Shown: positions 1 through 59,357, numbered from the stretch's first letter. The stretch: DNA of 64,000 nt from a bacterium BMS3Abin14 (GCA_002897695.1 BDTG01000041.1:20101-84100), one strand, 5' to 3'. Program-made: numbers and translations. The notes: generated by a model from the sequence alone, not told the origin.

Positions 1-1033
1 AGTCCGTGGTGAATGAGATCACCAGGAAGGAAGAACGACAGTTGGAGAAGGCATTCTCCAATGAACCATGGTCGGTCACGAGGTCAAAGTAATCCATAGC
101 CCGACTTATATAGAGGTAGGTGTTTGCATCAAAGCGCTGGACGAACTTGTCCCCCTGGTAGTGGAGATAGCTCTCAACCTGAAAATCCTTGGAAAACGAG
201 AAGCTTCGCCCGTTGCCGTTTACAAACCTTCGGCCGAACTTGCGGTTCATGGAGTCCTCGGACAGATAGGTTATGTGTCCTACCATCCTTGCCAGGGCAA
301 GGCCCGTGGATGGGGGTTCATCATTCGGGTATTTTCCGGCCAGAAACTTCGAATCACTGAGAATAGCCTGTCTGCCCACCTCGTTAAAAGCAATCCCCTG
401 GGCCGACATCCTGGCCGTCGTGGCTATGGGCAGGCATCCAGCAACCCGGTCCGGATAACTGATGGCCCATTGGAGCGCCTGCATGCCGCCCATGGAGCCA
501 CCGAGGACCGCCAGAAGACGATCTATGCCCAGGTGGTCCAGAAGCCACCTTTGCACCTCCACCATGTCGGTGATGGTAAAAAAGGGAAAGTCGAGCCCAT
601 AGCTTTGAGACGTATCGGGATTCATGCTGGTTGGCCCGGTTGTGCCGTAACAGCTGCCCAGAAAGTTGCTGCTGATAACGAAGTATCTGTCCGTATCCAA
701 AGGTTTTCCCGGTCCGATAAGAATATCCCACCAGCCGGGCTTTTCACCCTCGTCCGTTCCGTGATAGCCGGCCGCATGGGCATCACCCGACAGGGCGTGG
801 CAGACCAGGACGGCGTTATCCCTTTTTGGTGAAAGCGTTCCATAGGTCTCGTAGGCCACCGTTATGGGAGACAGGGCGCCGCCCGACTCCAGCCGAAGAA
901 CGTGATCGGGGCCGTCAAAAGACACGCTCCGCTGTTTGACCACGCCCACTGACTCCGCCGGCCGGACAGACCCGGAGGGTCCAGCTCCCGCACGGCCGGC
1001 GGGAGCTTCCTGGTGGACTTTTTGCGAGAGCAT
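1..1033 (-). CDS. metX: Homoserine O-acetyltransferase MetX (partial; the 3' end runs off the window start). The start overlaps the metY stop in TGATG.
   Basis: Reverse-strand translation from 1033 reads [91 protein letters not shown], matching the N-terminal signature of MetX/HTA (alpha/beta hydrolase). The + strand ORF 68..832 is its antisense artefact. Confidence 0.85.
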
Positions 1034-2310
1034 CAGACCTTCTCCAGGGCGCTGTCGATGTCATCAAGGATGTCCCTGATATCCTCCAGCCCCACAGAGA
1101 GCCTGATGAAATCGTCCGTAACCCCGGTGGCAAGCCGCTCATCGGGTGAAAGCTGCTGGTGGGTAGTGGACGCGGGATGGATGACAAGAGACTTGGCATC
1201 ACCGATATTGGCCAGATGAGAAAGAAGGCGGACATTGTCGATAAAGCGAATGCCTGCCTCAATACCACCCTTGATGCCGAAACCGACGATAGCACCGCAA
1301 CCGTTGGGCAGGTATTTTTTGGCCAGGTCGTAGGACGGGTGTCCTGCAAGCTCGGGGTAGTTTACCCAGGATACCTTTTTGTGTTTGCTCAGATGCTCAG
1401 CCACCTTCAGGGCGTTGCAGCTGTGGCGTTCCATCCTCAGAGGCAGGGTCTCGAGCCCCTGCAGGAACAGAAATGAGTTGAATGGGCTCAAAGCCGGGCC
1501 AATGTCCCTTAAGAGCTGAACCCTGAGTTTGATGATGAACGCCAGTTCTCCAAGGGCCTCGCTGTATAGCAGACCATGATAGCTGGGGTCGGGTGTGGTA
1601 AACCCGGGGAATCTTCCCGCAGTCCAGTCGAATCTGCCGGAATCCACTACCACGCCCCCGATGGATGTGCCGTGTCCACCGATGAACTTGGTCGCCGAGT
1701 AGACGATAATGTCGACGCCGTGGTCAAAAGGACGGAAAAGGATGGGGGAAACCGTATTGTCAAGGATTACCGGGACTCCGGCCTCATGGGCCAGTTCAGC
1801 GATAGCCTCGAAATCGGGGACGTCCAGCTTCGGATTTCCAACACTTTCCAGGTAGACCGCCTTCGTTCTCTCATTGATCGCGGTCCGGAAGTTCTCAGGA
1901 TCGGACGGGTCCACGAAATGGACCTTTATCCCCAGCTTTTTAAATGTGTACTTGAAGAGATTATACGTTCCCCCGTACAGGCTGGTGGCCGAGACAATCT
2001 CGTCTCCGCTTTGAGCGATGTTTAAAATAGTCAGGGTGATGGCTGACTGCCCGGAGGCCACTGCCAAAGCCCCGACCCCACCATCAAGAAGGGCCATTCG
2101 CTTCTCGAAAACGTCGGAGGTGGGGTTCATGATCCTGGTGTAGATGTTGCCGAGTTCCTTTAACGCGAAAAGGTCCGACGCGTGCTGCGAGTCGCGGAAG
2201 ACGTAAGAGGTGGTCTGGTAAATGGGAACGGCCCTGGCCAAGGTTGTTTCATCAGGCTCCTGACCGCCGTGAAGCGCTATTGTACCGGTATGATACTGTT
2301 TTTCGGACAT
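1033..2310 (-). CDS. metY: O-acetylhomoserine aminocarboxypropyltransferase (sulfhydrylase), PLP-dependent
   Basis: The 425-aa product is full-length in the Cys/Met-metabolism PLP enzyme family ([10 protein letters not shown] lysine region, GNPKLDVPD). RBS aaaggag upstream. Confidence 0.9.
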
Positions 2311-15291: not shown

Positions 15292-15360
15292 GGTGTACTT
15301 ATATCAGCAGATGGACAATAAATCACCGATCTTGGCAGGGTCGTAAAAAATCGTTAATAG

Positions 15361-24053: not shown

Positions 24054-24219
24054 CTGTTGATGGACTCGCAAAAAGTCCATTCGTGGCTTTTTGCTCAACG
24101 GAAAGCGGAAAATGTCATTTTCACTTTCCTTACAAATCAACGACTTGCGCTGCAAGTCATCGATTTGGGCGCCCTTAAACGGGCGCGTTGATGACTTTTT
24201 GCGAAGTCATCAACTGTTG
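24054..24219. repeat. Intergenic repeat element copy E1, about 165 bp, with imperfect terminal inverted repeats
   Basis: ctgttgatggactcgcaaaaagtcca ... gactttttgcgaagtcatcaactgttg. The core tggctttttgctcaacggaaagcg-aaaa-tgtc-ttttcactttc...acaaatcaac-acttgcg is about 85% identical to the copy at 58700-58887. Confidence 0.75.
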
Positions 24220-32241: not shown

Positions 32242-32393
32242 TTCATCACTCCTCGCCCGGCCATGCAATGTAAAAACTTCCCGGAGACGAAAAAATCCCG
32301 GACCTCTTTATCGAGATCCGGGATGCCGTTTTTCATCCGTCTTTGACAGCGGTCAGACCCTGGCCGCGAGGGTTCCGTTCGCTCTGTCCAACA

Positions 32394-32560
32394 GGCAGGT
32401 CTTCTGGCTTCCGGATTACCCTACTCGCCGCGCCTTCCCGCCCTTCGACAAGCGCAGGACTAACCCTGGACTTCCTTTGAGCAGTGACTAATTGCGGCTT
32501 TCGTCCCCGGTTACAGCGGCGGGTCCGCGACGGATTCTCACCGTCTTCCCTTGGCCTGTT
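32394..32560 (-). ncRNA. Cobalamin (AdoCbl) riboswitch in the btuB leader
   Basis: The minus strand reads AAGGGAAGACGGUGAGAAUCCGUCGCGGACCCGCCGCUGUAACCGGGGACGAAAGCC ... AGUCACUG ... GGGAAGGCGCGGCG ... AGCCAGAAGACCUGCC, which contains the conserved stems and the B12 box of RF00174. A hairpin plus U-run (ccggatctcgataaagaggtccgggatttttt) follows as the expression platform. Confidence 0.8.
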
Positions 32561-32704
32561 AAATCAACAGTAGGGCACGATCGTCGGGATGTCAAGAATG
32601 GCGAGGCCTCAACGCATGGATCTTTATCTAACAGGGATGAAGGGGATAGAGGGGATAAACCTGCCATAAAACCCTATTTTGCCTTGTTTGCAGTGAGGTA
32701 CGCA

Positions 32705-34655: not shown

Positions 34656-34972
34656 CCGAAACCTTCATTGTTTGATAGGGTCGTAAAAAGTCCAGTCATG
34701 ATTTTTTTTGCAAAGCCGTCAATTTTCTCCACGAGATGGTCTCATTGCCGCAAGTTTACTTCAACGCGGGGGCATATACCAGATACAACCGGCCTGCCGG
34801 GAAAAGAGTGTATTGCCTGAAATACAGGCAGCACACTCAGGTTCAATGCCATATTTTCGTCCAATGGAGTTACCGCAGAATGCCCCTTATTCCCTTTGCC
34901 GTTGTACCGAATAAATAGCCATCTATTTGGAAAATAAAGAAATTCAGATTGGCAAACCCCCTTTGGAAAAAA

Positions 34973-39455: not shown

Positions 39456-39545
39456 TGTCTCATCATCTTTGGCAGGGTCGTCAAAAGTTCTGTTAAGGAT
39501 ATAGTTTCAAAACGTGTGTGTCTTTTATTACCACACGGCGCCCAA

Positions 39546-41129
39546 TTAAACCACTTTTCCGGATCGGCCGCCAAAGAGCGTCCATGGAAGTTTACCGTTC
39601 CTTCTGTCAAAGAGGATACGGTCTGCATCCGGAAAGATCCGCTGGAGTTTTCGCAGGGAGATACCCCCTGCGGGGAGCGCCCCCAGCGCTTTTCCAAGAT
39701 TCCTGTCCCCAAGGGATATCAGGGCGTCCAGATAGGCTCCCCTCATGGAACCTGCCTGGAACCTGACCCCTCCCATGCGTCCTATTTTCTCCCTCAAGGA
39801 TTTCAGCCTTCTCGACAGCACATCCTCGGCCGCCATGGGCTCCCTTTCCAGTGGAGTGTGGGGTTTGGGAACGAAAGGATTAACGCTTACAGTTATGTTC
39901 CCGACCTTTCCTCTTTTGCGTCCAGCCCCCACCACCTTGTCCCTGATGCGGCCTACCAGGTCGGAGATGGCCGCCATATCATCGTCCTCTTCACCGGGCA
40001 GCCCTACCATGAAGTACACCTTCACACCCGGAACCCGCGCCCGCTGAAGGAGGTTTACGGCTTCCATGATCGCATCGTCCGAGAACCCTTTTCCAACTGT
40101 CTTTCTGAGGGCAGATGTCCCGGCTTCGGGAGCGAGTGAAACGGTTCGGTGCCCACTTGCCGCGAGCATTTCCGCCAGTTCAGGGGTCATACGTTCCAGC
40201 CTGACCGATGAGGGGGAAAACCTTCCCCCCAGATCAAGGATCATCCTTCCCGCATCGAGAAGCTCAGGATGGTACGATACCGCGGTCCCCACCAGCCCTA
40301 TCTTCCTCCTGTATTTCAGGCCGGTCCGTACCTCCTTCTCCATCCTTTCCAACCCCAGAAAGCGCACCGGGCCGCATATATGGGAAGCCGCGCAGAAGCT
40401 GCATTTTGCGCCGCATCCCCTGGAGATCTCCAGGGGATACATGGAACCGAATTCAGTGCCCCGTGCCACCACGGCGGGCCTGGCGGGTTTCACATCCAGG
40501 GAGGATACCATGGATCGCTCAATCCATGGGGACATCGACCCGAGGGGTCTGGGAATCAGGTAGCGGGAACCTTTTACTTCGCCGGCGCTGTACATGGAGG
40601 GGACATAAGCGCCGGGCAGGCCGGCAGCCAACTCCAGGATACGATCTCTGCTTCCGGAAGGCCCAGCCGAGAGAAGAATGTCGGGGAGGGTCTCGAAAAC
40701 AGGTTCAGAATCGCCGATAATAATCAGATCGAAAAACTGGGCGACCGGTTCAGGGTTGATGGTCAGGGCAGCCCCGCCGCCCAGCACAAAGGGCCCGGCC
40801 GCCTCTGGTGCGAACGGGGCAACTCCTCCCGCTTCCAGCATCCGGGGGAGGTGAACAAGATCCGGCTGAAAGGAAACGGAGAATGCCACGACATCGAACT
40901 CGGACAGGGAACGGCTGCCATCGGGGAAATAGAGCCCGCTTCCCTCCCAGAAAACCCTTCGTACGTCAAAACCTGGAACATCAAGAAACCCTCTCAAGAC
41001 CGCCTGGTAGCCGAGGTTTGACATGCCCACCCAATAGCTGTTGGGATAAGCGACCGCCACCCTCAATGAGCCTCCCCTGGCAGGCCGGGGGGAAACCCAG
41101 GCCTCATCCAGCGGGCTCCGGGCGTTCAT
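39546..41129 (-). CDS. B12-binding-domain radical SAM protein (TIGR03960-like, uncharacterised)
   Basis: N-terminal VAVAYPNSYWVGMSNLGYQ B12-binding-like region and a CxxxCxxC radical SAM motif (RGCGAKCSFC). Confidence 0.75.
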   Translation of the reverse strand: MNARSPLDEAWVSPRPARGGSLRVAVAYPNSYWVGMSNLGYQAVLRGFLDVPGFDVRRVFWEGSGLYFPDGSRSLSEFDVVAFSVSFQPDLVHLPRMLEAGGVAPFAPEAAGPFVLGGGAALTINPEPVAQFFDLIIIGDSEPVFETLPDILLSAGPSGSRDRILELAAGLPGAYVPSMYSAGEVKGSRYLIPRPLGSMSPWIERSMVSSLDVKPARPAVVARGTEFGSMYPLEISRGCGAKCSFCAASHICGPVRFLGLERMEKEVRTGLKYRRKIGLVGTAVSYHPELLDAGRMILDLGGRFSPSSVRLERMTPELAEMLAASGHRTVSLAPEAGTSALRKTVGKGFSDDAIMEAVNLLQRARVPGVKVYFMVGLPGEEDDDMAAISDLVGRIRDKVVGAGRKRGKVGNITVSVNPFVPKPHTPLEREPMAAEDVLSRRLKSLREKIGRMGGVRFQAGSMRGAYLDALISLGDRNLGKALGALPAGGISLRKLQRIFPDADRILFDRRNGKLPWTLFGGRSGKVV

Positions 41130-41135
41130 CTACCC

Positions 41136-42287
41136 TTAATCCGCCTGGCGCCTTAAAAACGCGGGGACCTCAAATTCTTCCTCATCAATGGCCGACATTG
41201 CCGGGCGTCTGGTCTTTTCCGAAGGGGCTTCGGCCTCCTTGTTTCTGATAAAAGTCGGTAATTCAGTATCCTGTGAACCTGCGCCTCCCCAGGAAGACAC
41301 CCTGGAGTCAAGGCCTTGCCTCGTTTGTTCCTGCCCGAAACCGGTCGCAATAACGGTCACCATGAGATTCTCATCCATGGAATCATCCTCGACCCATCCA
41401 AAAATAATCTCGGCATCCTCGTGAACAGCGCTTCGGACAATGGCCGATGCGTTCTGGATCTCCTGCATGCCGATGCCCTTGTTTGCGGTGATATTGATGA
41501 GGACCCCTCTGGAACCATCGATACTGTTGTCCTCCAGGAGCGGGCTGGAAATAGCCGTCTGTGCGGCCTCGGACGCTCGGTCATCACCCTGGGCAATCCC
41601 GGTGCCCATGAGAGCTCGTCCCTTCCCTTCCATGATCCTTTTCACATCAGCGAAATCGAGGTTGATGATTCCAGGCTTTGTGATGAGATCGGATATACCC
41701 TTAACCGCACAGTGAAGAACATCGTCCACAACCTTGAAAGCGTCCGTTGCGAGGGCGCCATGTTTGATCACCGAAAAAATGCGATCATTGGGAATTACGA
41801 TCAGGGTGTCAACACTTTTACGCAGCTCTTCCAGCCCGTTTTCCGCGTTTTTCATCCGCACGCGGCCTTCGAACTCGAAGGGCTTGGTTACAACCCCGAC
41901 GGTGAGTATGCCGGCATCTTTTGCTATTCCCGCGACCACGGGAGCAGCTCCAGTGCCCGTTCCACCCCCCATGCCGGCGGTGATGAACACCATATCCACG
42001 CCCTGGATCGACTCGGAAATTTGATCCTTGCTCTCCTGCGCCGAACGCAGGCCAATCTCAGGATCCGCGCCGGCGCCGAGACCGTGTGTCACCTCTTCCC
42101 CCAACTGGATTTTAGTGGGTGCATCGGATCTTTTTAACGCCTGCGCATCTGTATTGGCGGCGATGAAATCAACATTTTTCAACATTGACTTGATCATATT
42201 GTTAATGGCATTGCCGCCGCCCCCCCCGACTCCGATGACCTTGATCCGGGCCTGAAGGTCCTTGCTCTCCTCTACGAACTGAAACAT
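41136..42287 (-). CDS. ftsZ: Cell division GTPase FtsZ
   Basis: GVGGGGGNA tubulin signature and the T7 loop. Confidence 0.95.
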
Positions 42288-42340
42288 ATGTCACCTCCCT
42301 GGTATTAGGACAGTGTTCCCCGCACTATTTTTGATAGAGC

Positions 42341-42406
42341 CGTTAAAAGTCCACCTGTCTGCATGCAAGCACAGGCAGGTTCGCGACTTTTTGCAAAGTC
42401 ATCACG
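42341..42406. repeat. Intergenic repeat/hairpin element E4 in the ftsA-ftsZ gap
   Basis: ttaaaagtccacctgtctgcatgcaagcacaggcaggttcgcgactttttgcaaagtcatcacg. The frame A-run-GTC [GC-rich palindrome] GAC-T-run is shared with the other copies. Confidence 0.7.
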
Positions 42407-42407
42407 T

Positions 42408-43640
42408 TTAGATAAAATCCTTCAGCCAATCCCTCATCTTTGCCAGTATCTTGTCAAAAATCCTCGATTCATTTGTGCCAAAGACCCCCTCCCCGCCGTG
42501 GGTTGCCCCGTACTTGATCAGCCCGACTCCGGTAGCGTACATGGGACTTTTAACCACATCCACCAGGCCGCCGACATCTCGAGGATATCCAACCCGGACA
42601 GGCATATTAAAGACCTGTTCCGCCAACTCGGCCATGCCGCTCATGATTACCGTTCCACCGGTCAGGACGATGCCGGAAGCTATGCGGTCATTGTGTCCCG
42701 ATTTGAGTATTTCCCGGTTTATGAGTTCGAAGAACTCTTCCGCTCTCGGTTCGATAATTTCCGACAGGAACCTCCTTGAAACCTTCCTCGGCTTATGGCC
42801 GCCAACGCCCATTACCTCTATTTCCTCATCCTCGCCGACCATTTCGGTGAGAGCGCAGCCGTACTCCTTCTTAATTCTCTCCGCTTCAGTCGCCGGGCTC
42901 CTGAGACCATAGGCGACATCGTTGGTCAGGTTAATGCCTCCCAGAGCGAGAACGGCGGTCTGTCTTATGCTGCCGGCGCCAAATATTGCCAGATCAGTGG
43001 TCCCGCCCCCGATATCAACCAGCGCAACCCCAAGTTCTTTCTCCTCATCAGTGAGAACTGCGCTTGCGGCGGCAAGAGGTTCGAGGACAATATCCAGGAC
43101 GTCCAGACCCGCACGATTGCTGCTTTTGATAATGTTCTGTGCGGACGTTACGGCGCCCGTTACTATATGGACCTTGGCCTCAAGGCGCACACCTGACATG
43201 CCCAGGGGATCGACGATACCGTCCTGGTCGTCCACAATGAACTCCTGGGTCAGGGTGTGGATAATCTCCCGATCCAGCGGCATGGCAACCGCCTGGGCCG
43301 CGTCGATGACCCTTTCAATGTCTTTTTTGGTAACCTCCCTGGTCTTGACCGCAACCACCCCGTGGCTGTTGAACCCCTTGATATGGCCGCCGGCAATCCC
43401 GACATAAGCTCCCTGGATCGGCACCCCGGCCATGAGTTCGGCCTCCTCGACAGCCTTTTTGATGGAATCCACGGTGGCGTCGATGTTGATCACCACCCCT
43501 TTTCGGAGGCCTTTGGACGGGGTGGTGCCGATCCCTATGATCTCGCACCATCCTTTCTCGTCTACGGCAGTGACTACGATACATATTTTCGTAGTCCCTA
43601 CATCCAACCCTACAACGATACGCTCCCTACCCTTGGCCAT
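42408..43640 (-). CDS. ftsA: Cell division protein FtsA
   Basis: Actin-like ATPase fold (VGLDVGTTKI). Confidence 0.9.
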   Translation of the reverse strand: MAKGRERIVVGLDVGTTKICIVVTAVDEKGWCEIIGIGTTPSKGLRKGVVINIDATVDSIKKAVEEAELMAGVPIQGAYVGIAGGHIKGFNSHGVVAVKTREVTKKDIERVIDAAQAVAMPLDREIIHTLTQEFIVDDQDGIVDPLGMSGVRLEAKVHIVTGAVTSAQNIIKSSNRAGLDVLDIVLEPLAAASAVLTDEEKELGVALVDIGGGTTDLAIFGAGSIRQTAVLALGGINLTNDVAYGLRSPATEAERIKKEYGCALTEMVGEDEEIEVMGVGGHKPRKVSRRFLSEIIEPRAEEFFELINREILKSGHNDRIASGIVLTGGTVIMSGMAELAEQVFNMPVRVGYPRDVGGLVDVVKSPMYATGVGLIKYGATHGGEGVFGTNESRIFDKILAKMRDWLKDFI

Positions 43641-44511
43641 GGCGAACTCCTCTCAAACCCGAGTCGGCTGATTTTCCGTTAACCCGGCCGACTCTTCCGG
43701 GCACCTTTATTATCCTTCCATCGAAACGCAGATCATATCCGGCCGCTCCGGCATCGAAATGCTTCGACGCCATGAGTCTTGCCAGACGATCCAGCTCGTC
43801 CCTGGATCCATCGGGCGACATGATCAGAGTGGTCCCGGTTTTCACCAGGGCTACCAGGACAGTCCGCTCATTTTTCACCCTTATCTCCGATATGGCATCA
43901 GCCCCAAAGAGTCCGGAAGCCTCCAGGCCTTTCAGAACCTTCAGTGCGCCCACCGCATCGGCCAACCGTTCGCCTGGGCTCCAATCCCCTGACAGGCCCG
44001 TTATCAGGGGCAGTGCCCCCGGATACCTGCCGGACATGCTCAGCACGATGCCCTCCATGTCCACCACGGGATACCCCCGGCCCATGACCACCGCCGCGGG
44101 ACGGCGTTCCTCTATGTTGATCTCCATGGTATCCGGAAGCTGTCTTACTACAACAGCGCTTTCGACCCGGGGCAGCTTTTTCACCCTTTCAAGGACATCG
44201 CCGAGGTCCACCCTTAAAAGCGGCGCCCCCTCCCGAATCCCGGAGGCCATGACAATTCTCCTCCTGGTGACATCCCTGGATCCTGTGACGATGATCCTCT
44301 TCACCGAAAGGGCAGGCATGTCGATAAGGGCATTGCCTCCCAGCCAGGCCCCGTAGATCAACGACACCATGGCCAGTCCCGCAATCACCCCTCTTAACAC
44401 CCACCAGCTTTTTGCTGCCGTCTCGCGCGAGGGACGCAACGCAATCCGTTTTTTCACCGCGCTTTTTCTCCTGACGGTCTTCCTGGAAATGGGTTTATTC
44501 CTGCGTCCCAC
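43627..44511 (-). CDS. ftsQ: Cell division protein FtsQ
   Basis: N-terminal TM, POTRA and the FtsQ beta domain. Position is between ddl and ftsA. Confidence 0.8.
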   Translation of the reverse strand: MGRRNKPISRKTVRRKSAVKKRIALRPSRETAAKSWWVLRGVIAGLAMVSLIYGAWLGGNALIDMPALSVKRIIVTGSRDVTRRRIVMASGIREGAPLLRVDLGDVLERVKKLPRVESAVVVRQLPDTMEINIEERRPAAVVMGRGYPVVDMEGIVLSMSGRYPGALPLITGLSGDWSPGERLADAVGALKVLKGLEASGLFGADAISEIRVKNERTVLVALVKTGTTLIMSPDGSRDELDRLARLMASKHFDAGAAGYDLRFDGRIIKVPGRVGRVNGKSADSGLRGVRHGQG

Positions 44512-44513
44512 GG

Positions 44514-45416
44514 CTACTTGCTCCCCTCTCCCGCGGTTTTCAGCATCTCCAGGACCAGGGATTGAAAATCGATACCCATTCCCTGAGCCGATTTGGGGAG
44601 GAGGCTTGTGGGTGTCATTCCCGGGATGGTGTTCACCTCAAGGACCTTGAAATTTCCGTCCTGGCCTCTCAGGTCAACCCTGACCGCCCCGCTGCACCTT
44701 AACGCGTGAGAGGTCTCAAGGCCCGTGCTGCGAACAAGCTCCGTCATTTCCGGGTCAAGGGGCGCCGGCACCCTGTACTCATCAGCGCCGGTAACATATT
44801 TTGTCTCATAGTCATAAAACCCGTTCGCCGTGACGATCTGGACCACTGCCAGCGGCTTCCCGTTAAGGATACCGACGGTATATTCCTCCCCGGGCACGAA
44901 GGACTCGATCAGCACATACGGATCATGCCGGGCGGCATCCCTGATCGCCTTCTTGAGAGTTCCCTTTTCCCGGACGATGGAGATGCCGATGGTAGAACCC
45001 TCACGGCTTGGTTTCACCACGACAGGAAAAGGCATGTTGATCTCATGATCATAATCCCCAGGCCCCATGGAAACGTACGGGGCAGTGGGGATTCCGCAGG
45101 CATCGAGTATCCTCTTGGTCTGGATCTTGTCCATGGCGAGCGCTGAAGCGAGGACCCCGCTGCCCGTGTAGGGTATATCCATGAGTTCCAGAGCCCCCTG
45201 GATTGTCCCGTCCTCACCGCCTCTTCCGTGGAGAGCGATAAAGGCCACATCGACCTTTTTCCTTAACATCTCCGAACGCCAATCCCCGGCGGTATCAACT
45301 GTAACCGCATCGACATCTCTTTCCAGAAGGGCCGAACAGATGGAGTTTCCGGTGACAAGAGAAACATCCCTCTCGGCGGATCGCCCCCCCATCAGAACCC
45401 CCACTTCAGTAGACAA
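44514..45416 (-). CDS. ddl: D-alanine--D-alanine ligase
   Basis: ATP-grasp Ddl motifs. Confidence 0.9.
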   Translation of the reverse strand: MSTEVGVLMGGRSAERDVSLVTGNSICSALLERDVDAVTVDTAGDWRSEMLRKKVDVAFIALHGRGGEDGTIQGALELMDIPYTGSGVLASALAMDKIQTKRILDACGIPTAPYVSMGPGDYDHEINMPFPVVVKPSREGSTIGISIVREKGTLKKAIRDAARHDPYVLIESFVPGEEYTVGILNGKPLAVVQIVTANGFYDYETKYVTGADEYRVPAPLDPEMTELVRSTGLETSHALRCSGAVRVDLRGQDGNFKVLEVNTIPGMTPTSLLPKSAQGMGIDFQSLVLEMLKTAGEGSK

Positions 45417-46305
45417 TCTTCACCTCCTCCTTCAGGCCAACCTCAAACTTCTCCAGGACAGCGGCCTTCACCATCCCGGCAAGCGCCTCAAAATCACCCG
45501 CCGTAGCACCGCCAATGTTGACGAGGAAGTTGGCGTGGACATCCGAGACCTGTGCGCCCCCGACTGTCAGGCCTTTCAGGCCTGCCGCCTCTATGAGCCT
45601 TCCCGCGTTGTCTCCCTCAGGGTTCACGAACCAGCAGCCTGCGCTTGGAAGCCCCAGCGGTTGGCCGGCCTTTTTCCGTGCCAGCATCTCCCCGATTCTT
45701 CTGTCCACAGCCTCGGGGCTGTCCAGGGAAAACCCGATCCTTACCCTGGTTATGACGGCGTCTGCAGGGAGCGCCAACCGCCGGTACCTGAAGTCCAGGT
45801 CCTTTCTCTCAATCCAGGAGGTTATGCCCTCGGCCACGACCTGGATCGCCATTACAGGTCCCGCCATTTCCCCGCCGCCTGCCCCGGCGTTCATCCTCAC
45901 CGCCCCCCCGATGGTTCCCGGGATTCCGGCTGCGAATTCAAACCCCGTCAGCCCCATTCGGGCGGTTTTCGCTACTATCCCGGCTGTCCCGGCGGCTGCG
46001 CCGGCCTCCATGGTCGTTTCGTTAATTTCCTCCACATCGGCAAATCCTCTGCCCAATCGGATCACGCATCCACCAAAGCCCGACTCCGGAAAAAAAACGT
46101 TGGTGCCGCTGCCCAGTATCATCCAGCTGATGTCCCTCCCCTCGAAAGCATCAAACAGGGTCCGGAGATCCTGAAGGGTCTCAGGTATGGCCACAAGATC
46201 GGCCTTTCCACCTACTTTCAGGGAACAGTAGCGAGACATTGGTTCTTCGCTGTGGACGGGCCCGGAAAAACCCTCCGCCCGCAATAGTTCCGCCAGGTTT
46301 TTCAC
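45406..46305 (-). CDS. murB: UDP-N-acetylenolpyruvoylglucosamine reductase
   Basis: FAD-binding MurB pattern. Confidence 0.9.
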   Translation of the reverse strand: MKNLAELLRAEGFSGPVHSEEPMSRYCSLKVGGKADLVAIPETLQDLRTLFDAFEGRDISWMILGSGTNVFFPESGFGGCVIRLGRGFADVEEINETTMEAGAAAGTAGIVAKTARMGLTGFEFAAGIPGTIGGAVRMNAGAGGGEMAGPVMAIQVVAEGITSWIERKDLDFRYRRLALPADAVITRVRIGFSLDSPEAVDRRIGEMLARKKAGQPLGLPSAGCWFVNPEGDNAGRLIEAAGLKGLTVGGAQVSDVHANFLVNIGGATAGDFEALAGMVKAAVLEKFEVGLKEEVKIVY

Positions 46306-47684
46306 TCCTGGTCCTCCAGCCTGCTGAGCACCTCTTCCCCGGCCCGCCAGACATCACCGGCGCCCAGGGTAAGGAGAAGCTCCCCTTTCCGGATCTCCTC
46401 GAGAACGCGGTCAACGGCCTCCGCCCTGGTTCCGACATATTTAACGTAGCGGTGACCATGCCCGACCATCATTGCTGCTACTTTTTCACCGGTAAGCCCC
46501 TCTATGACGGTCTCCCCGGCGGCATAAATGTCGCAAACCAGAACCCTGTCGGCGTTATGAAACGCCGTCCCGAAATCCCCCAGAAGATCCTGCGTCCTGG
46601 AATACCTGTGCGGCTGGAAGAGAACCACGATGGGGCCCTCCCATCCCTCGCGAGCCGCCTTCAATGTGGCCTTGATCTCGGTGGGATGGTGGCCGTAATC
46701 GTCGTAGACGGCGATGCCGGCTGCCATCCCCTTGAACTGGAACCGTCGCTGAACACCCGTAAAGGAGCCCAGCGCCCGGGAAATCGTATGGAAAGGAATA
46801 TCCAGCTCAAGCCCCACCGCGATTGCCGCCAGGGAGTTGTAGACATTGTGCGCTCCCGGCACACGGAGGGTAACGGCGCCAAGGGGCGCCCCATCCAGTT
46901 CGGCGGAAAATGATGATTCGAAACCCGAATGGACCACGTCCCTGGCCATCACGTTCGCCTGGGTGGTCAGACCGTACGTCAGATACGGCCTGTCTATCCC
47001 CAGAAGGAGGCCGGCCACTTCAGGATCGTCCAGGCACAGGATTGCCCTGCCGTAAAAGGGAACCTTGAGCAGGAATTGCCGGAAAGCATCCCTCAGATCA
47101 TCCATGGTCCCATAGTGATCCATGTGCTCCCTGTCGATATTGGTCACAACCGCGATAGTCGGTGTCAATTGGAGAAAGGAGCCGTCGGACTCGTCAGCCT
47201 CTGCTACGAGATAGTCCCCTGTCCCGAGCAGGGCATTTATCCCGAGACTGTTGAGCTTCCCGCCTATGACAACAGTGGGATCGAGATTCGCTTCCGCCAT
47301 TACCGCAGCCACCATGGATGTTGTTGAAGTCTTCCCGTGAGAGCCGGCTACGGCGATTCCGTATTTCATGCGCATGAGTTCATTCAGCATGGCTGCCCTT
47401 GCCACGACGGGGATGCCTGCCTCCCTGGCAGCTACCACTTCCGGGTTATCCTCGCGTATTGCCGAGGATATGATCACCACGTCAGGGGTCCCGATATTTT
47501 CGGCGCTGTGCCCTTTCAGGACCCTGGCGCCAAGTTCCGTAAGCCTTTCCGTTGTTTCGCCGGCAGCCAGATCTGATCCCGAGACCACGTATCCGAGGTT
47601 AAGCAGCACCTCGGCGATTCCCGACATACCGATACCGCCGATCCCTACGAAGTGAAGATTTCGTGTCTTGCGAAGCTTGACCAA
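46302..47684 (-). CDS. murC: UDP-N-acetylmuramate--L-alanine ligase
   Basis: Mur ligase motif GTNGKT-like (VAGSHGKTSTT). Confidence 0.9.
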   Translation of the reverse strand: MVKLRKTRNLHFVGIGGIGMSGIAEVLLNLGYVVSGSDLAAGETTERLTELGARVLKGHSAENIGTPDVVIISSAIREDNPEVVAAREAGIPVVARAAMLNELMRMKYGIAVAGSHGKTSTTSMVAAVMAEANLDPTVVIGGKLNSLGINALLGTGDYLVAEADESDGSFLQLTPTIAVVTNIDREHMDHYGTMDDLRDAFRQFLLKVPFYGRAILCLDDPEVAGLLLGIDRPYLTYGLTTQANVMARDVVHSGFESSFSAELDGAPLGAVTLRVPGAHNVYNSLAAIAVGLELDIPFHTISRALGSFTGVQRRFQFKGMAAGIAVYDDYGHHPTEIKATLKAAREGWEGPIVVLFQPHRYSRTQDLLGDFGTAFHNADRVLVCDIYAAGETVIEGLTGEKVAAMMVGHGHRYVKYVGTRAEAVDRVLEEIRKGELLLTLGAGDVWRAGEEVLSRLEDQE

Positions 47685-47696
47685 ACCACTGCTCTC

Positions 47697-48812
47697 CTAT
47701 TGTCCTGCTGCTTGATTCCCCTGTCTTAAACCCGCCAAACGGTGCATCTCCTCGCCGGCGATTCTGTGCGCCGCGTCCGATGTGCCCGCCCTTCTGCAGG
47801 CGGCCGCCATCTTTTCAAGGAGAGGCGGCGAATTTAGCAGGTGTTTAATCTCGCCCTGCAGCAAGGCCGGGTTTGCCTCGGCGGCCTCTATGGTTACCGC
47901 TCCTCCGAATTCCTCAAGCCACCTGCTGTTCGCCCGCTGGTGCTGCTCCGCAGCATGAGGATAGGGGATGAGAATTGCCGGAAGTCCGGCGGCGGCAAGT
48001 TCGGACACCGCCATGGCCCCGGCTCGCGACAGGCACAGATCAGCCCTGGCATAGTAATCCCCCATGTCCTGAATGAAGGGAATTACCTCCACCTCGACCC
48101 CTTCCATCTCATAATGGTCCTTCACCCTCTTTCCGTGGATCGTTCCGGTTTGATGTATCACCTCCATGGAGCTGTTGCCCCTCAGCAAGTCCGGAACCGC
48201 TTCCATGGCGAGGTCGTTGAGCTGCGCCGCTCCCTGGCTGCCTCCCAGGATCAGCAGACAGGTTCTCCGTTCTCCGGCAGCAGCTTTGCCGGTTTCACCT
48301 GACACAAGGGCCTGGCGCCGAATGGGGTTGCCCGTGATGACCGTCTTTCCCATGGGAAACAACGGCTTTATCGTCGGAAATCCCAGGTAGATCCTCTGGG
48401 CGAAGCGCGAAAGAAAAAGGTTTGCCCTTCCCGGAATTACGTTCTGCTCCAGGATGCACCTGGGCACTCCCCTGAGTGAAGCGGCGATCACCCCCGGGAC
48501 CGAGGCATATCCTCCCACTCCCACCACGAGGTCGGGGGATAATCGGCCGAGTAACCGGTACGCTTTCAGGACAGCTCTCATCAATCCCACCGACCTTGCA
48601 AATCCTCTCATTGCCCCCATATTCATGATGCCCGCGATGGGAAGCGTTACCAGTTCATATCCCAACCGCGGGATCACCTTCGTCTCCAGCCCCCTGTCGG
48701 CTCCCATAAATACGATTTCCGTCCCGCTCTCAATCTCACGAAAGGCATCCGCGAGGGCTACACCCGGAAAGAGATGTCCGCCCGTCCCGCCACCCGCGAC
48801 AATCACTTTCAT
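47697..48812 (-). CDS. murG: UDP-GlcNAc:lipid I GlcNAc transferase
   Basis: GGTGGHLFP N-terminal motif. Confidence 0.9.
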   Translation of the reverse strand: MKVIVAGGGTGGHLFPGVALADAFREIESGTEIVFMGADRGLETKVIPRLGYELVTLPIAGIMNMGAMRGFARSVGLMRAVLKAYRLLGRLSPDLVVGVGGYASVPGVIAASLRGVPRCILEQNVIPGRANLFLSRFAQRIYLGFPTIKPLFPMGKTVITGNPIRRQALVSGETGKAAAGERRTCLLILGGSQGAAQLNDLAMEAVPDLLRGNSSMEVIHQTGTIHGKRVKDHYEMEGVEVEVIPFIQDMGDYYARADLCLSRAGAMAVSELAAAGLPAILIPYPHAAEQHQRANSRWLEEFGGAVTIEAAEANPALLQGEIKHLLNSPPLLEKMAAACRRAGTSDAAHRIAGEEMHRLAGLRQGNQAAGQ

Positions 48813-49903
48813 GCCGCGCTTTCCGTGGAGGCCACATTGAGCACGACTCCAATGGCAATGGCGGAAGCCAGGAGGGAAGATCCGCCATAGCTCATGAATG
48901 GAAGCGGCAATCCCTTCGTGGGCAGGAGCCCGACCACGACCATGCAGTTGATAAGCGCCTGCAAACCGATCATCAGCGTCATGCCGGCAGCGAGAAGTGA
49001 ACCGAAGTTGTCGGGGGCATTCCGGGCTATCTTCATCCCTCTGGCCACCAGCACCGCGAACAGGGCAAGAACGATAGCCACACCCACGAACCCCAGTTCC
49101 TCTCCCACAACGGCCAGGATAAAATCAGTATGTGATTCCGGCAGGAAAAGGAGTTTGCTTTTTCCACCCCCAAGGCCGGTTCCCAGGACTCCCCCATCCC
49201 CGAAAGCAAGGAAGGACTGGACCAGTTGAAAACCGGAACCTTCATATTCCTTCCATGGGTTGAGAAACGCCTGGATCCTCTGGATTCTGAAACCCTTGTC
49301 CATAACCAGGAAAACGACTACGGGGATAGAGGCACAACCGAGCCCAACAAGTCTTCCAAAGGGGACCCCTCCCACAAAAAGGATGGCGAATCCCAGTATC
49401 CCCAGGAAGATGGCAGTGCCCAGGTCCGGCTCGAGCACAACGAGCCCCAGAATGAGGGCGAGGATGAGGATAGGCTTCATCAGTATTGTCCCATCCCTAC
49501 GCACATCATCCCCGCGTCCCCCAAGATATCTTGCCAGGTAGATGACAACGACCAATTTCGCGAACTCGGCGATCTGAATGGAGAAGGGGCCAAGTTTGAG
49601 CCACCGCGTAGCGTTATTTGCGGTGTGGCCAAGGGGGCTCAGAACCACCCCCAGGAGCCCCACGGTGAGTATAAGGAGAGGAGCAGCGCCCGTGATCCAA
49701 ATCTTATAAGGTATCAACGAGACGATGACCATGGTCAGCAGCGCCATGATGCTGAAGAAAAGCTGCCTCTTGAAGAAAAATGCACTATCCCCCATGTCTC
49801 TGCCCGCCCTGACTGCACTGGCGCTGTACACCATGACCGTACCGAGGATCATCAGGGCAAGGACCGCTATTACGATGACCGGATCAATTCTGAAACTTTT
49901 CAT
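48809..49903 (-). CDS. ftsW: Peptidoglycan glycosyltransferase FtsW (SEDS family)
   Basis: Ten TM helices with the SEDS signature. Confidence 0.9.
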   Translation of the reverse strand: MKSFRIDPVIVIAVLALMILGTVMVYSASAVRAGRDMGDSAFFFKRQLFFSIMALLTMVIVSLIPYKIWITGAAPLLILTVGLLGVVLSPLGHTANNATRWLKLGPFSIQIAEFAKLVVVIYLARYLGGRGDDVRRDGTILMKPILILALILGLVVLEPDLGTAIFLGILGFAILFVGGVPFGRLVGLGCASIPVVVFLVMDKGFRIQRIQAFLNPWKEYEGSGFQLVQSFLAFGDGGVLGTGLGGGKSKLLFLPESHTDFILAVVGEELGFVGVAIVLALFAVLVARGMKIARNAPDNFGSLLAAGMTLMIGLQALINCMVVVGLLPTKGLPLPFMSYGGSSLLASAIAIGVVLNVASTESAA

Positions 49904-51309
49904 TCTGCTCCACCGATGTACCGCCCAACCAGCTTTTTGAATATCTTGCCGCGCTCTTCAAAACTGTTGAACATATCAAAGCTGGAAGAAGCCGGAGAAA
50001 AAAGGATCTCATTACCGGGCCTGGCCCAGTCAATGGCCTCTTTTACCGCCTCGTTGAGGTTCCCGGCCATGAAAATTGGGGCCGTATCCTCAAGAGCATC
50101 CCTCATCCTTTCACCCGATTCACCGATAAGGATCAATCGGCTGACTTTCCGCGAGATCGGCCCCCTCAGGGGGTCGAAAGAAGTGCCCTTGTCCTTCCCA
50201 CCCATGATCAGAATGACGTCGGAATGCAGCCCTTCCAGAGATCGCATCGTAGCCCCGACATTGGTCCCTTTTGAATCGTTGTAAATGGGGACCCCCCGGA
50301 AAAAGGCAACAGGCTCCATCCTGTGCTCCAGACCGGGGAAAGTTTCCATGGCACGGGCCATGCTGGAAGGCTGAATACCCATTTTCCACCCGGCCGCCAC
50401 CGCCGCAAGGCAGTTCTCCAGATTGTGCTTTCCGACAAGACGAATTTCGCCGGAATGGATGACCCTTATCTCTTTTTCTCCGTCCCGAATGACGATCCAG
50501 CCAGAAGTAAAAACAACACCCTGCTTCAGGTTTTTCTTCCTGCTGAAGGGAAACAGGCGTGGACGAATGTTCTGGGCCATCCGCATGACAGCCGGATCAT
50601 CGGCATTGACCACTGCCCAGTCCTCCTCTTCCATGTTCCTGAAGATGTTGGCCTTGGCCTCAATATAGTCTCCCTCACCGGCGTAGCGATCGAGGTGATC
50701 AGGGGAGATGTTGAGAAGAACACCGACTGCAGGATGGAACCTCTCTACCGTTTCAAGCTGAAAGCTCGAAACCTCCACGATAAACCAGGAGATACCTCCT
50801 TCCCTGAGGATCATCTCCGTAACGGGTGTCCCAAGGTTTCCGCCCACCGCGGAAGGGATCTTTCCAACCCTGGCAAACTCACCGAGGAGGGTGGTTGTCG
50901 TTGATTTGCCGTTGGTACCCGTAATTGCCACCCATGGCGACCTGGACAGCCTGTAGGCCAACTCCATCTCCCCTATTACCGTCGCGCCGCATTTAACGGC
51001 ACGCCGCACAAACTCCGAATCCATCGGTACTCCCGGGCTCAGGACAACAAGCCCGTGCCCTTCCGCAAGATCCAATGGATGTCCTCCCCACCGTATATCT
51101 ATTCCCGGGTGAAGTTTTCCGGGCATGTCGGTAAAATCCTCTCTGTCCATCAATTCGCTGACCACTACCCGGCAGCCCACGTCTGCCAGCAACTCGGCTG
51201 CCGAACGACCGGAACGCCCGAAACCCACCACGAGAACAGGCTTATCCCCCTCAAGGAACTTTCCAATGGGGTCCTCTGGATCCCTTAATTTTGCCCTCGT
51301 TTTTCGCAT
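49900..51309 (-). CDS. murD: UDP-MurNAc-L-Ala--D-Glu ligase
   Basis: Mur ligase motif ITGTNGKSTTT. Confidence 0.9.
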   Translation of the reverse strand: MRKTRAKLRDPEDPIGKFLEGDKPVLVVGFGRSGRSAAELLADVGCRVVVSELMDREDFTDMPGKLHPGIDIRWGGHPLDLAEGHGLVVLSPGVPMDSEFVRRAVKCGATVIGEMELAYRLSRSPWVAITGTNGKSTTTTLLGEFARVGKIPSAVGGNLGTPVTEMILREGGISWFIVEVSSFQLETVERFHPAVGVLLNISPDHLDRYAGEGDYIEAKANIFRNMEEEDWAVVNADDPAVMRMAQNIRPRLFPFSRKKNLKQGVVFTSGWIVIRDGEKEIRVIHSGEIRLVGKHNLENCLAAVAAGWKMGIQPSSMARAMETFPGLEHRMEPVAFFRGVPIYNDSKGTNVGATMRSLEGLHSDVILIMGGKDKGTSFDPLRGPISRKVSRLILIGESGERMRDALEDTAPIFMAGNLNEAVKEAIDWARPGNEILFSPASSSFDMFNSFEERGKIFKKLVGRYIGGAE

Positions 51310-51314
51310 CCGGC

Positions 51315-53811: not shown

Positions 53812-55274
53812 CTCGCCGCCTCCATGACAGCGGCGATGGCGGCTGCGACCTCATCCACATCCGAGAACGGCAGGACCTGATCTCCCGTGGTCTGATAATT
53901 TTCATGCCCCTTCCCGGCCACCACCAGGATATCATCCGGCCCGGCCATGCGGGATGCCAGTTTTATTGCCTCGCGGCGATCGGCAACACGGCGGACATTC
54001 GCCCTGCAGTGGGCCATCCCCGCCACAATTTCGTCGATAATGGAGTCCGGGTCTTCACTACGAGGATTATCGGAGGTAACGATAACCTGGTCGGCAAGTT
54101 TCCCGGCGATGCCCCCCATGATGGAGCGTTTGGACCTGTCCCGGTCGCCGCCGCAGCCGAAAACGACAATTGCTTTGCCCCTTGTGATCATTCGGACGTT
54201 TTCAAGGAGATTTTTCAGTGCGTCAGGGGTATGAGCGTAATCCACTATGGCCGCATAGGGCTGTCCTTTGTCGACTCTTTCAAAACGTCCCGGGACCATG
54301 GTGACATCCTGAATACCCTCTGAAATCTTTCCGGCGTCCACACCCAGAAGCCCGCATACAGCCACCGCAACCATGATATTATAGACGTTAAAATGCCCGG
54401 GCAGGGTCGTGTTCACGGGTATCGTGCCCCAGGGGGTTTCCAGGACGAACCGGCTGCCCCAGCTCCATCCGTCAATCTCGCCCCTGATCCGCACATCTCC
54501 GGCTTTCATCCCGACGGTGAGAATCGGGCCATCCGCCTCTCTGTATAACCTGGCCCCATAACCGTCATCGATGTTCACCACGCCGCTGACTGTTGAAGGA
54601 TCTGTAAAGAGGCGTGCTTTCACCTGGAAGTAATCCTCCATGTCGGAATGAAAATCGAGATGGTCCTGCGTCAGGTTGGTGAATGCGGCCACCTCCATGC
54701 GCAATCCATCCACGCGGTGAAGGACCATCGCATGGGAAGATACCTCCAGAATGCATGCCTTGCACCCTGATGAGACCATGCTCGCCAGATATGCATTTAA
54801 ATCAGGGGACTCAGGGGTCGTTCTTGACGCGCTCAACACCTCGCTGCCGATGAGATATTGCACTGTGCCGATAAGGCCCGGCCTGAATGCCGACGAATTC
54901 AGAATTCCGTGAATTATGTAGGCTGTTGTAGTTTTTCCGTTCGTGCCTGTTATTCCCACCAGCTTCAGGGCGGCTGATGGATCGTGATAGATGTTTCTTG
55001 AGGCCAGGGCCATGGCGGCCCGAACATCATCCGCCAGGACGAACGTCGTCCCCTGGACCGGGGATACATGATGGCCGGTTAAAAATACTTCGGCTCCCTT
55101 CTCCATGGCATCCCCGATAAAGGTGGCTCCATCGAATCTTTCCCCGGTAACGGCTGCAAAAAGGTCTCCAGGACGAACACGCCTTGAATCGCAACGGATC
55201 CCCGTCACATCAACCTCCCCCGCGCCAACGATTCTGACCCCGGGCACACCGTCCATGACATCGCGAATTTTCAA
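53808..55274 (-). CDS. murE: UDP-MurNAc-L-Ala-D-Glu--2,6-diaminopimelate ligase (TTG start)
   Basis: Mur ligase GITGTNGKTTT and the DAP-specific DNPR motif (SDNPRSEDP). Confidence 0.9.
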   Translation of the reverse strand: MKIRDVMDGVPGVRIVGAGEVDVTGIRCDSRRVRPGDLFAAVTGERFDGATFIGDAMEKGAEVFLTGHHVSPVQGTTFVLADDVRAAMALASRNIYHDPSAALKLVGITGTNGKTTTAYIIHGILNSSAFRPGLIGTVQYLIGSEVLSASRTTPESPDLNAYLASMVSSGCKACILEVSSHAMVLHRVDGLRMEVAAFTNLTQDHLDFHSDMEDYFQVKARLFTDPSTVSGVVNIDDGYGARLYREADGPILTVGMKAGDVRIRGEIDGWSWGSRFVLETPWGTIPVNTTLPGHFNVYNIMVAVAVCGLLGVDAGKISEGIQDVTMVPGRFERVDKGQPYAAIVDYAHTPDALKNLLENVRMITRGKAIVVFGCGGDRDRSKRSIMGGIAGKLADQVIVTSDNPRSEDPDSIIDEIVAGMAHCRANVRRVADRREAIKLASRMAGPDDILVVAGKGHENYQTTGDQVLPFSDVDEVAAAIAAVMEAAR

Positions 55275-55287
55275 TTTCCGGCAACCT

Positions 55288-55349
55288 CGTTAAAAGTCGT
55301 CTCTCGCCGCGCATCTCCTGCGTGGCGGACTTTTTGCACATTCATCACG
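55288..55349. repeat. Intergenic repeat/hairpin element E5 in the ftsI-murE gap
   Basis: cgttaaaagtcgtctctcgccgcgcatctcctgcgtggcggactttttgcacattcatcacg. A long imperfect hairpin bounded by an A-run and a T-run. The right arm overlaps the ftsI stop. Confidence 0.7.
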
Positions 55350-57315: not shown

Positions 57316-57335
57316 TGGATCATCCATTTCGCCAG

Positions 57336-57405
57336 GGTCGTAAAAAATCCACTCATGGCTTTTTCCCAACAAAAAGCGAAAAATGCCATTTTCATTTTCC
57401 TCTCA
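57336..57405. repeat. Intergenic repeat element E3 in the ftsL-ftsI gap
   Basis: ggtcgtaaaaaatccactcatggctttttcccaacaaaaagcgaaaaatgccattttcattttcctctcaaatc. It shares the conserved core with E1 and E2. Confidence 0.7.
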
Positions 57406-57730
57406 AATCTTCCGGAATCATCATTACCTGTCCCGGACCAGGGTCCTTCATCCCCATGCGCTCCCGTGCAATATGCTCGATCCGTTCGGGCCTGTTTAAC
57501 ATGGCCCTCTCGATCTCAAGTTCCCGGTTGAGGCCGGCTTTGCGGGCCTCAGCCTTTTCCAGATCCCTTACCTGATATCCCAGGTCGATAACGTCGACAC
57601 CGCGCCATGCTGTTACGAAAATACCGCCGCCGACCAGAACGGAGATCAGCAGAACAATTGTCAATTCCCTGAGCCCGGGCGCCGCGATATGCTGCTCACG
57701 CTTTGCTCTGACTCCGGCGACTGCATTCAC
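57392..57730 (-). CDS. ftsL: Cell division protein FtsL
   Basis: Small bitopic protein with a coiled coil, positioned between rsmH and ftsI. Confidence 0.75.
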   Translation of the reverse strand: MNAVAGVRAKREQHIAAPGLRELTIVLLISVLVGGGIFVTAWRGVDVIDLGYQVRDLEKAEARKAGLNRELEIERAMLNRPERIEHIARERMGMKDPGPGQVMMIPEDLRGK

Positions 57731-58677: not shown

Positions 58678-58699
58678 TATTCCCTGTTGGCATCCATTG

Positions 58700-58887
58700 A
58701 CATGGTCGCAAAAAGTCCACTTGTCTGCGTGCAACGCACAGGCAGGTTCATGGCTTTTTGCTCAACGGAAAGCGAAAAGTGTCCTTTTCACTTTCATCAC
58801 AAATCAACAACTTGCGTTCCAGGCCATTGATTCAGGCGCCCTCATGGATGATGGCTTTGTAAAAAGTCATCATCCATGAGGGTGCCT
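58700..58887. repeat. Intergenic repeat element E2, about 190 bp, in the mraZ-rsmH gap. It ends in a 13-bp perfect palindrome.
   Basis: ggtcgcaaaaagtccac...catggctttttgctcaacggaaagcgaaaagtgtccttttcactttcatcacaaatcaacaacttgcg...ctcatggatgatg-gctttgtaaaaagt-catcatccatgag. Confidence 0.75.
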
Positions 58888-58893
58888 GAGAGA

Positions 58894-59346: not shown

Positions 59347-59357
59347 GTATCACCTCT

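Follow-up and report, generated by a model that had tools for sequence, protein, structure and literature searches.

Hairpins in the ftsA–ftsZ and ftsI–murE gaps of bacterium BMS3Abin14 are cut-down copies of a MITE

In the 64,000-nucleotide stretch analysed here (bacterium BMS3Abin14, GCA_002897695.1, BDTG01000041.1:20101-84100; hereafter the window), two short hairpins lie between genes of the dcw cluster, one (E4) between ftsA and ftsZ and the other (E5) between ftsI and murE. Each carries a GC-rich palindrome between an A-run and a T-run, and the initial annotation read the pair as dedicated bidirectional terminators or attenuators tuning ftsZ dosage. The question raised by this locus is whether the two hairpins were built to control ftsZ or murE. 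They were not: both are cut-down MITE copies. The genes to which they had been assigned were correctly named, and all lie on the minus strand:

ftsZ, 41136-42287, minus strand
ftsA, 42408-43640, minus strand
murE, 53808-55274, minus strand
ftsI, 55345-57372, minus strand
mraZ, 58894-59346, minus strand, from which the dcw cluster runs down to ftsZ

Directly upstream of mraZ there is a near-consensus sigma-70-type promoter (59384-59412, minus strand; TTGACA-17-TATAGT, 11 of 12 matches), which is likely the dcw operon promoter.

The sequences of E4 and E5 and the outer frame they share were confirmed. On the gene strand both read ACGTGATGA-nTn-TGCAAAAAGTC, then a GC-rich palindrome, then GACTTTTAACG; on the plus strand both read GTTAAAAGTC...GACTTTTTGCA...TCATCACG. 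The pattern AAAAGTC-N15-45-GACTTTT matched twice in the window and never in 100 dinucleotide shuffles, which bears out the suspicion that the frame is not due to chance, and a relaxed search of the window for TGCAAAAAGTC returned seven sites against 0.8 expected. The frame thus recurs elsewhere in the window, a fact that had been overlooked. Genome-wide enrichment had been proposed as a check on a regulatory role; the frame is indeed enriched, but the enrichment points to a mobile repeat and not to a regulatory site. Similarly, the GC-rich palindromic interiors do differ between the two elements, as described, but that of E4 is not unique, since it recurs near-verbatim (CCTGCCTGTGCGTTGCACGCAGACAAG against CCTGCCTGTGCTTGCATGCAGACAGG) at 58720-58746, within a further copy (w58). 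The GC interior of E5 had a counterpart in no other copy.

Repeat finding returned two ~170-nt elements in the window (~24045-24225 and 58691-58889), 85% identical over 96 nt and with 33-nt terminal inverted repeats (TIRs), and nhmmer returned long copies at 24041-24233 and 58686-58894, partial copies at 57323-57411 and 34661-34711, and E4. At least nine copies or fragments are present in the window, four of them inside the dcw cluster, and all are oriented as their neighbouring genes. The copies and their parts are as follows:

E4, 42333..42404, minus strand: MITE copy of 72 nt, internally deleted, between ftsA and ftsZ
E4 left TIR, 42385-42404, minus strand: TGATGACTTTGCAAAAAGTC
E4 GC palindrome, 42354-42379, minus strand
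E4 right TIR, 42333-42351, minus strand: GACTTTTAACGGCTCTATC
E4 left flank AAACG, 42405..42409, minus strand: a candidate target-site duplication, decayed and a weak match
E4 right flank AAAAA, 42328-42332: matches the left flank AAACG at 3 of 5 positions
E5, 55280..55347, minus strand: 68-nt mini-MITE between ftsI and murE
E5 left TIR, 55328-55347, minus strand: TGATGAATGTGCAAAAAGTC
E5 GC palindrome, 55305-55327, minus strand
E5 right TIR, 55280-55298, minus strand: GACTTTTAACGAGGTTGCC
First TGA of E5, 55345-55347, minus strand: the present ftsI stop codon
GAGG inside E5, 55284-55287, minus strand: likely ribosome-binding site, ~10 nt upstream of the murE start
E5/murE junction GGAAAT + TGA, 55271..55279, minus strand: one diverged copy of the duplicated target, together with the former ftsI stop TGA, as read from the window against L141 and from the murE ORF start
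murE TTG start, 55272-55274, minus strand: includes part of the ancestral ftsI stop TGA
w58, 58699..58872, minus strand: full-length MITE in the mraZ–rsmH gap
GC palindrome of w58, 58720-58746: 27 nt, in the last hairpin loop and the same as that of E4
w57, 57331..57400, minus strand: 3' half of the MITE (hairpins D and E and right end), covering the stop codon of ftsL and the ftsL–ftsI gap
w24, 24059..24212, minus strand: canonical 154-bp MITE outside the dcw cluster, with the 5-bp direct repeat AACAG on both sides
w34, 34674..34711, minus strand: right-end fragment (hairpin E and right TIR) directly upstream of a minus-strand gene
w39, 39471..39490, minus strand: right-end remnant in the radical-SAM–maf gap, common to L001 12797-12832
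w15, 15334..15353, minus strand: right-end remnant CGATTTTTTACGACCCTGCC
w1016, 977..1035, minus strand: left end TGATGCTCTCGCAAAAAGTC followed by a GC-rich hairpin, starting at a gene's TGA stop codon

No right end was recognisable in w1016 (977-1035). Its GC-rich hairpin (AGCTCCCGC..GCGGGAGCT) is a third one, different from those of E4 and E5, which suggests that a left end followed by a GC hairpin is a recurrent local variant. Other features of the window include three tRNA genes on the minus strand (15715-15788, 15840-15912 and 21792-21873), the first of them ~360 nt from w15, and a cobalamin riboswitch (32377-32574, minus strand; Rfam RF00174, 95.9 bits) upstream of a 629-aa minus-strand ORF (30379-32268). 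The best inverted repeat of the window is a perfect 26-nt repeat, GGGGACGTAGTTAAGTTGTTAAGTTA (13057-13082 and 13122-13147, with 39 nt between the arms), and has no relation to the MITE.

The canonical element is ~154 bp long (153-155 bp in 68 distinct copies) and reads (T)TGATGACTTCGCAAAAAGTC ... GACTTTTTGCGACCCTATC, with three internal hairpins between imperfect TIRs of ~20 nt; both of these ends are kept in E4 and E5. Its consensus top strand comprises the left end (T)TGATGACTTCGCAAAAAGTCATCAA, hairpin B (CGCGCCCC..GGGGCGCC), hairpin C (CAAATCAATGAC..GTCATTGATTTG), hairpin D (TGAGGAAAGCGAAAATGACACTTTTCGCTTTCC) and the right end GTGGAGCAAAAAGCCACGAATGGACTTTTTGCGACCCTATC. The A-run-GTC...GAC-T-run frame of E4 and E5 is the inner part of the two TIRs, while the TCATCACG tail consists of the outermost left repeat (TGATGA) and three host bases (ACG). 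The idea of a protein-recognised module with a swappable interior is very probably right, but since the frame is the TIR pair of a MITE the protein implied is a transposase. The right end (T-tract-N7-TATCAA) slightly resembles a putative IHF site.

Exact 5-bp direct repeats flank 27 of 88 elements, compared with 3.2 expected from shuffled partners (maximum 10), and 56 of the 88 match at four or more of the five positions. These repeats are variable (AAGAT, AACTT, AATAT, AACGT and ACTAT are examples) and fit an AANNT-like target; those of E4 and E5 themselves have decayed to at most 3 of 5 matches. A filled site in L029 has an empty counterpart in L086, with flanks 99% identical. Mosaic shortened forms are common in the family. 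For example, one site holds the 154-bp form in L042 and a 71-nt internally deleted form in L132, and AAGAA flanks both. Head-to-tail arrays also occur, either of sub-modules comprising hairpins C, D and E, repeated every 120 nt, or of whole elements, repeated every 159 nt (L095 ~4250-4530, reverse strand; L047 ~9050-9330, reverse strand; L019 6960-7381; L141 7780-8030), in which neighbouring units have the junction in common and an 11-nt loop is the sole variable part. Although reminiscent of CRISPR, the 120-nt arrays lack unique spacers and vary only in that 11-nt hairpin loop, and a CRISPR-like array was rejected. Two further candidates were discarded on the same flanking repeats: an integron attC site, suggested by the conserved frame and variable interior, has neither the GTTRRRY/RYYYAAC core nor a fitting position, as the elements lie inside dcw and are flanked by target duplications, and an IS200/IS605-type insertion beside TTGA without duplication, suggested by the ends TTGAT...ATCAA, is contradicted by the variable 5-bp repeats.

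The family is abundant in its own lineage. A metagenome scan for the last hairpin and right end returned at least 120 stretches; in many of them 2-6 copies were packed into a few kb, and the density reached 6 copies per 13 kb. In addition, ~1 Mb of retrieved loci contained 183 regex matches and 264 non-redundant nhmmer hits. Among species-representative genomes, which do not include the source genome, a scan gave 16 matches, of which true copies occupied only five loci in four uncultured species-level MAGs. FtsZ and MurE searches likewise placed the relatives of the source lineage among uncultured organisms labelled "Deltaproteobacteria bacterium" or "bacterium". The end sequences had no match in the searchable literature, the element had none in the viral contigs searched, and Rfam 15 gave no match at any copy at the gathering score and only sub-threshold generic miRNA-hairpin matches at relaxed E-values. 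Under the definition of a MITE followed here (PMC10969869), which includes TIRs of ~4-30 bp, these non-coding elements of <500 bp, with TIRs, flanking direct repeats, dispersed copies and presence/absence polymorphism, are a new, previously undescribed, high-copy MITE that occupies the gaps between genes in an uncultured lineage from sediment.

Neither the canonical element nor E4 (72 nt) or E5 (68 nt) is long enough to encode a transposase, and no autonomous partner or transposase with these ends was found among TIR pairs 0.4-4 kb apart: all six such pairs (five loci, one on both strands) enclose ordinary genes, including phosphoribosyltransferase-like, LexA-like and transporter ORFs at the five loci inspected. 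Mobilisation would be in trans, by a putative transposase. Duplications of 5 bp fit several DDE families.

E4 and E5 have different histories. The closest relative, represented by a single JGI contig (L001 and L141), is ~85% identical to the window in DNA, and its ftsA–ftsZ gap (L001) contains the long form, with the same ACGTGATGAC directly after the ftsA stop. E4 is thus an old insertion whose core was lost later, because the long form occupies the orthologous site. A full-length copy would have entered the ftsA–ftsZ gap before the split from the 85%-identical relative, and the 115-nt core of E4 would then have been lost by deletion between two GCAAAAAGYC repeats; the E4 junction, from GCAAAAAGTC of the left end to GCAAAAAGCC of the last hairpin, is consistent with such a deletion. 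In two more distant relatives (L002 and L003) nothing related was found in the ftsA–ftsZ gap. That of L002 (9925-9960; CP070682.1, FtsZ protein 77% identical) has GGGATCC-like repeats, gatccgggatccgggatccgggatt, in place of the MITE.

The parent copy of E4 may have resembled w58 in already having the 27-nt GC palindrome within the last hairpin loop. This GC-rich palindrome of 26-27 nt (CCTGCCTGTGC..GCAGACAGG) occupies the identical point of the last loop in E4 and w58, which are 16 kb apart, while the orthologous copies at L141 6440-6460 and L001 9925-9945 are without it; the w58 orthologue (L141 6320-6473) likewise has no insert. The presence of the palindrome in both E4 and w58 could reflect gene conversion between copies or else a very small nested insertion whose target is highly specific. 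At the w57 site, L141 has two tandem partial copies.

E5 is a later, species-specific insertion that split the overlapping stop of ftsI and start of murE. In L141 and in the 64%-identical outgroup L142, these two genes overlap (GTGA) with zero gap (..ACG TGA / GTG AAA..), and the window has ~74 extra bases exactly between ACG and TGA. Elements of the family insert at an AANNT-like site with a 5-bp duplication, often at or beside a stop codon. As the element starts TGATGA, its first TGA is the present ftsI stop, and the murE TTG start is made of the last inserted T and the ancestral TGA. The operon may have survived the insertion in this way, with TGA-TGA providing ftsI with a new stop and the 3' end of E5 offering GAGG and completing the murE TTG start. 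E4 and E5 have in common the derived right end GACTTTTAACG, which occurs in none of the 142 loci compared, and the two are thus sisters within a local subfamily. Two further assemblies of this species, 98.2% and 99.9% identical, carry both elements unchanged.

Taken by itself, the arrangement of an A-tract and a T-tract around a GC-rich stem is what purpose-evolved bidirectional intrinsic terminators or attenuators, with no mobile element involved, would look like. The terminator consensus applied here specifies a GC-rich stem of at least 5 bp and a loop of 3-8 nt, directly followed by at least 5 U in 8 nt. In a scan of 41000-60000, neither E4 nor E5 was called on the coding strand, and E5 was called only on the plus (antisense) strand, where it is the top terminator-like match of the region. 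Folding agrees with this asymmetry: a long stem had been described for either strand, and it is the MFE fold on the plus strand only (E4, -20.2 kcal/mol, z -1.8; E5, -22.6 kcal/mol, z -4.1), but on the coding strand E4 prefers another fold and the z values are -0.9 for E4 and -2.3 for E5. The UUUUAA that had been noted after both elements on the coding strand was found as UUUUAAC, where the adjoining stem of 3 bp gives way to an internal loop. Efficient termination between ftsI and murE would also be hard to tolerate, because the essential murE-to-ftsZ genes lie downstream and the two genes formerly overlapped. Termination on the gene strand is therefore probably weak or absent at both sites. 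Moreover, the frame belongs to a TIR pair with target duplications and filled and empty sites, the family avoids convergent gene ends, E5 is absent from two relatives, and the ftsA–ftsZ gap differs in the closest relative and is unrelated in two more. A purpose-evolved terminator is accordingly scarcely credible and has already been largely refuted by the comparative data, and the tuning of ftsZ dosage by such dedicated sites is not supported.

The structure of the full-length element raises a different set of alternatives. The complete element folds at -70.8 kcal/mol (z -9.7 for w24), with the TIRs paired and enclosing the three hairpins. RNAalifold predicted 43 pairs across 68 copies, 12 of which show compensatory double changes; one pair, for example, is C-G in 45 copies, U-A in 21 and broken in only 2. 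At paired positions in these 68 copies, G.T occurs in 132 cells versus 27 for A.C (~4-5 times), and 12 pairs have at least four G.T cells whereas none has four or more A.C cells. This excess implies that it is the top strand whose folding has been kept. Copies co-oriented with genes have a ratio of 3.3 and anti-oriented copies one of 3.1, so the asymmetry belongs to the element and not to host transcription; co-transcription with host genes was rejected as its cause, as the ratio is not reversed in antisense copies. For an element with TIRs and target duplications, such strand-specific constraint is unexpected. Gene context is also uneven. With gap classes taken from a home-made, codon-usage-scored ORF caller on metagenome loci, elements in co-directional gaps follow the gene orientation in 52 cases and oppose it in 26 (a 2:1 bias), and, among 103 element sites, 20 are in divergent gaps and 5 in convergent gaps, which make up 12% of all gaps and are thus under-represented among the sites. 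The ends of elements frequently abut or overlap a stop codon, and frequently finish 8-24 nt ahead of a start codon, as expected from tight packing between genes. Both the top-strand bias and the bias in gene orientation hint at something more than neutral DNA in this family. It is unlikely, yet conceivable, that the family is no ordinary cut-and-paste MITE, and that its one-strand conservation and head-to-tail arrays mean that the element moves or acts via a single-stranded DNA or RNA intermediate, 5-bp duplications notwithstanding, or carries a structured RNA module of use to the host or to the element itself; if so, E4 and E5, which alone have extra GC hairpins, would be forms re-engineered in this lineage within the division operon.

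Two specific readings of this constraint fare poorly. A repeat of the REP/BIME type in place of a classical TIR/DDE MITE, propagated by a RAYT (Y1/HUH) enzyme that works on hairpins in single-stranded form, would explain the mosaic, modular make-up and tandem arrays, the compensatory changes and top-strand G.T tolerance that are independent of host gene orientation, and the failure to find a transposase nearby. Y1/HUH single-strand transposition (IS200/IS605, REP/RAYT), however, is not known to leave a duplication, and variable 5-bp target duplications flank the present element, whose ends are ~20-nt inverted repeats and not identical hairpins in direct orientation; a conserved GTAG-like foot tetranucleotide was not seen. 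This makes a REP/RAYT origin very improbable. A non-mobile family of structured cis-regulatory RNAs or small-RNA genes, of which E4 and E5 would be degenerate members, would account for the stable fold, the 12 of 43 pairs with compensatory changes, the strand-specific G.U tolerance and the frequent 3' ends shortly before start codons, but it is at odds with target duplications, filled and empty sites, placement in both orientations to genes (52 versus 26), neighbouring genes that are mutually unrelated and the lack of any Rfam match, and it can be given almost no credence. An internal sigma-70-like promoter was also not seen, with no -35/-10 pair at 16-18 nt spacing detected by eye on either strand of the consensus, and the sole promoter-scan match touching a copy scores 9 of 12 (58703-58676). 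A sigma-54 promoter formed from TGGAC-TTTTT-GCG was rejected, as its GG-to-GC spacing is 7 nt and not 10.

More serious is the possibility that E4 and E5 derive from the MITE but have since been co-opted, as partial attenuators or as RNase III/E processing or stability sites that set the ftsA:ftsZ and ftsI:murE transcript ratios. Three assemblies of the species all carry both copies, fixed and unchanged, although neutrality also predicts fixation in three near-identical assemblies. Both have gained GC-rich inner hairpins of a kind absent from ~200 copies in other genomes, the extra last-loop hairpins being confined to window copies among the ~200 examined, and the 3' end of E5 has adapted to give murE its ribosome-binding site and start codon. 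RNase III and RNase E are, in addition, known to act on MITE transcripts, and repeats resembling terminators have been described (PMC10969869, PMC3049150, PMC2649163). On the other hand, there is zero conservation past the species level, with E5 absent from relatives and the long form in the L001 gap, the U-tract is no longer than 4 nt, and on the coding strand the folds show no unusual stability. Co-option is consequently unlikely, if less so than the other alternatives. It is highly probable instead that E4 and E5 are miniature derivatives of a ~154-bp non-autonomous MITE and persist as tolerated passengers, most likely with a minor RNA-hairpin effect at most. Both would be co-transcribed with the operon, and pairing of their TIRs would form hairpins in the transcript whose effect on pausing, processing or stability would be weak at most and which would fall short of efficient termination. 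Roles in processing, stability or weak pausing are known for Correia and ERIC elements (PMC10969869, PMC2649163).

Among known repeats, the family appears to work like MITEs of the Correia/CREE, BOX, ERIC and RUP type, and it is a member of none of them, since its sequence, duplication and host differ. Correia elements have a TA target duplication and 26-bp TIRs. Like Correia/CREE/NEMIS of Neisseria, the present elements are small (~100-155 bp), non-coding MITEs whose TIRs of ~20-26 nt can pair in the transcript, which occur in full-length and internally deleted size classes, lie densely between genes, would be co-transcribed with them and can remodel gene ends and expression signals (PMC2649163, PMC10969869). 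In contrast to Correia, they have a 5-bp AANNT-like duplication, unrelated sequence and TIRs, and an uncultured, deltaproteobacterium-like host. Correia elements are also documented to bind IHF, to carry outward promoters and to be cleaved by RNase III. The mini-forms E4 and E5 resemble SPRITE, an interspersed repeat with A-run and T-run ends around a stem and the look of a terminator (PMC3049150). SPRITE is enriched at the 3' ends of convergent genes, its target duplication could not be established and termination by it is an open question (PMC3049150), whereas the present family under-uses convergent gaps (5 of 103), has clear duplications and a 115-nt, three-hairpin core, and shows the terminator look only in the mini-derivatives of the window.

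The family also shares with pneumococcal BOX and enterobacterial ERIC/IRU elements a modular or mosaic construction, in which the number of modules varies and internal deletions fall at set places, together with tight folds and an intergenic position within transcription units (PMC3049150, PMC10969869), although sequences and hosts are unrelated and module boundaries differ. REP/BIME elements are similarly high-copy extragenic palindromes that form mosaic clusters and in which the hairpin matters on one strand. Their units are 20-40 nt long, make no duplication and depend on a Y1 enzyme, compared with 154 bp, TIRs and 5-bp duplications here; strand-specific conservation of structure is the sole REP-like trait of the family, which falls outside the REP/BIME class. 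Finally, E4 and E5 resemble Rho-independent terminators in having a GC-rich stem-loop next to a T-run, with an upstream A-run that would allow either direction, but differ from them in the coding-strand UUUU followed by AAC, in the 3-bp adjoining stem with its internal loop, in their position inside an essential operon and in having arrived as insertions.

Recognition of E4 and E5 as transposon remnants removes a tempting mis-annotation, as hairpins in the ftsA–ftsZ and ftsI–murE gaps readily resemble regulators of ftsZ dosage. The family consensus can be used to mask these repeats in the assembly and annotation of MAGs from this clade, and in the prediction of terminators and sRNAs. In the source species itself, the translational coupling of ftsI and murE by overlap has been replaced by a 70-nt spacer, which provides a clean example of an essential, tightly packed operon absorbing an insertion.
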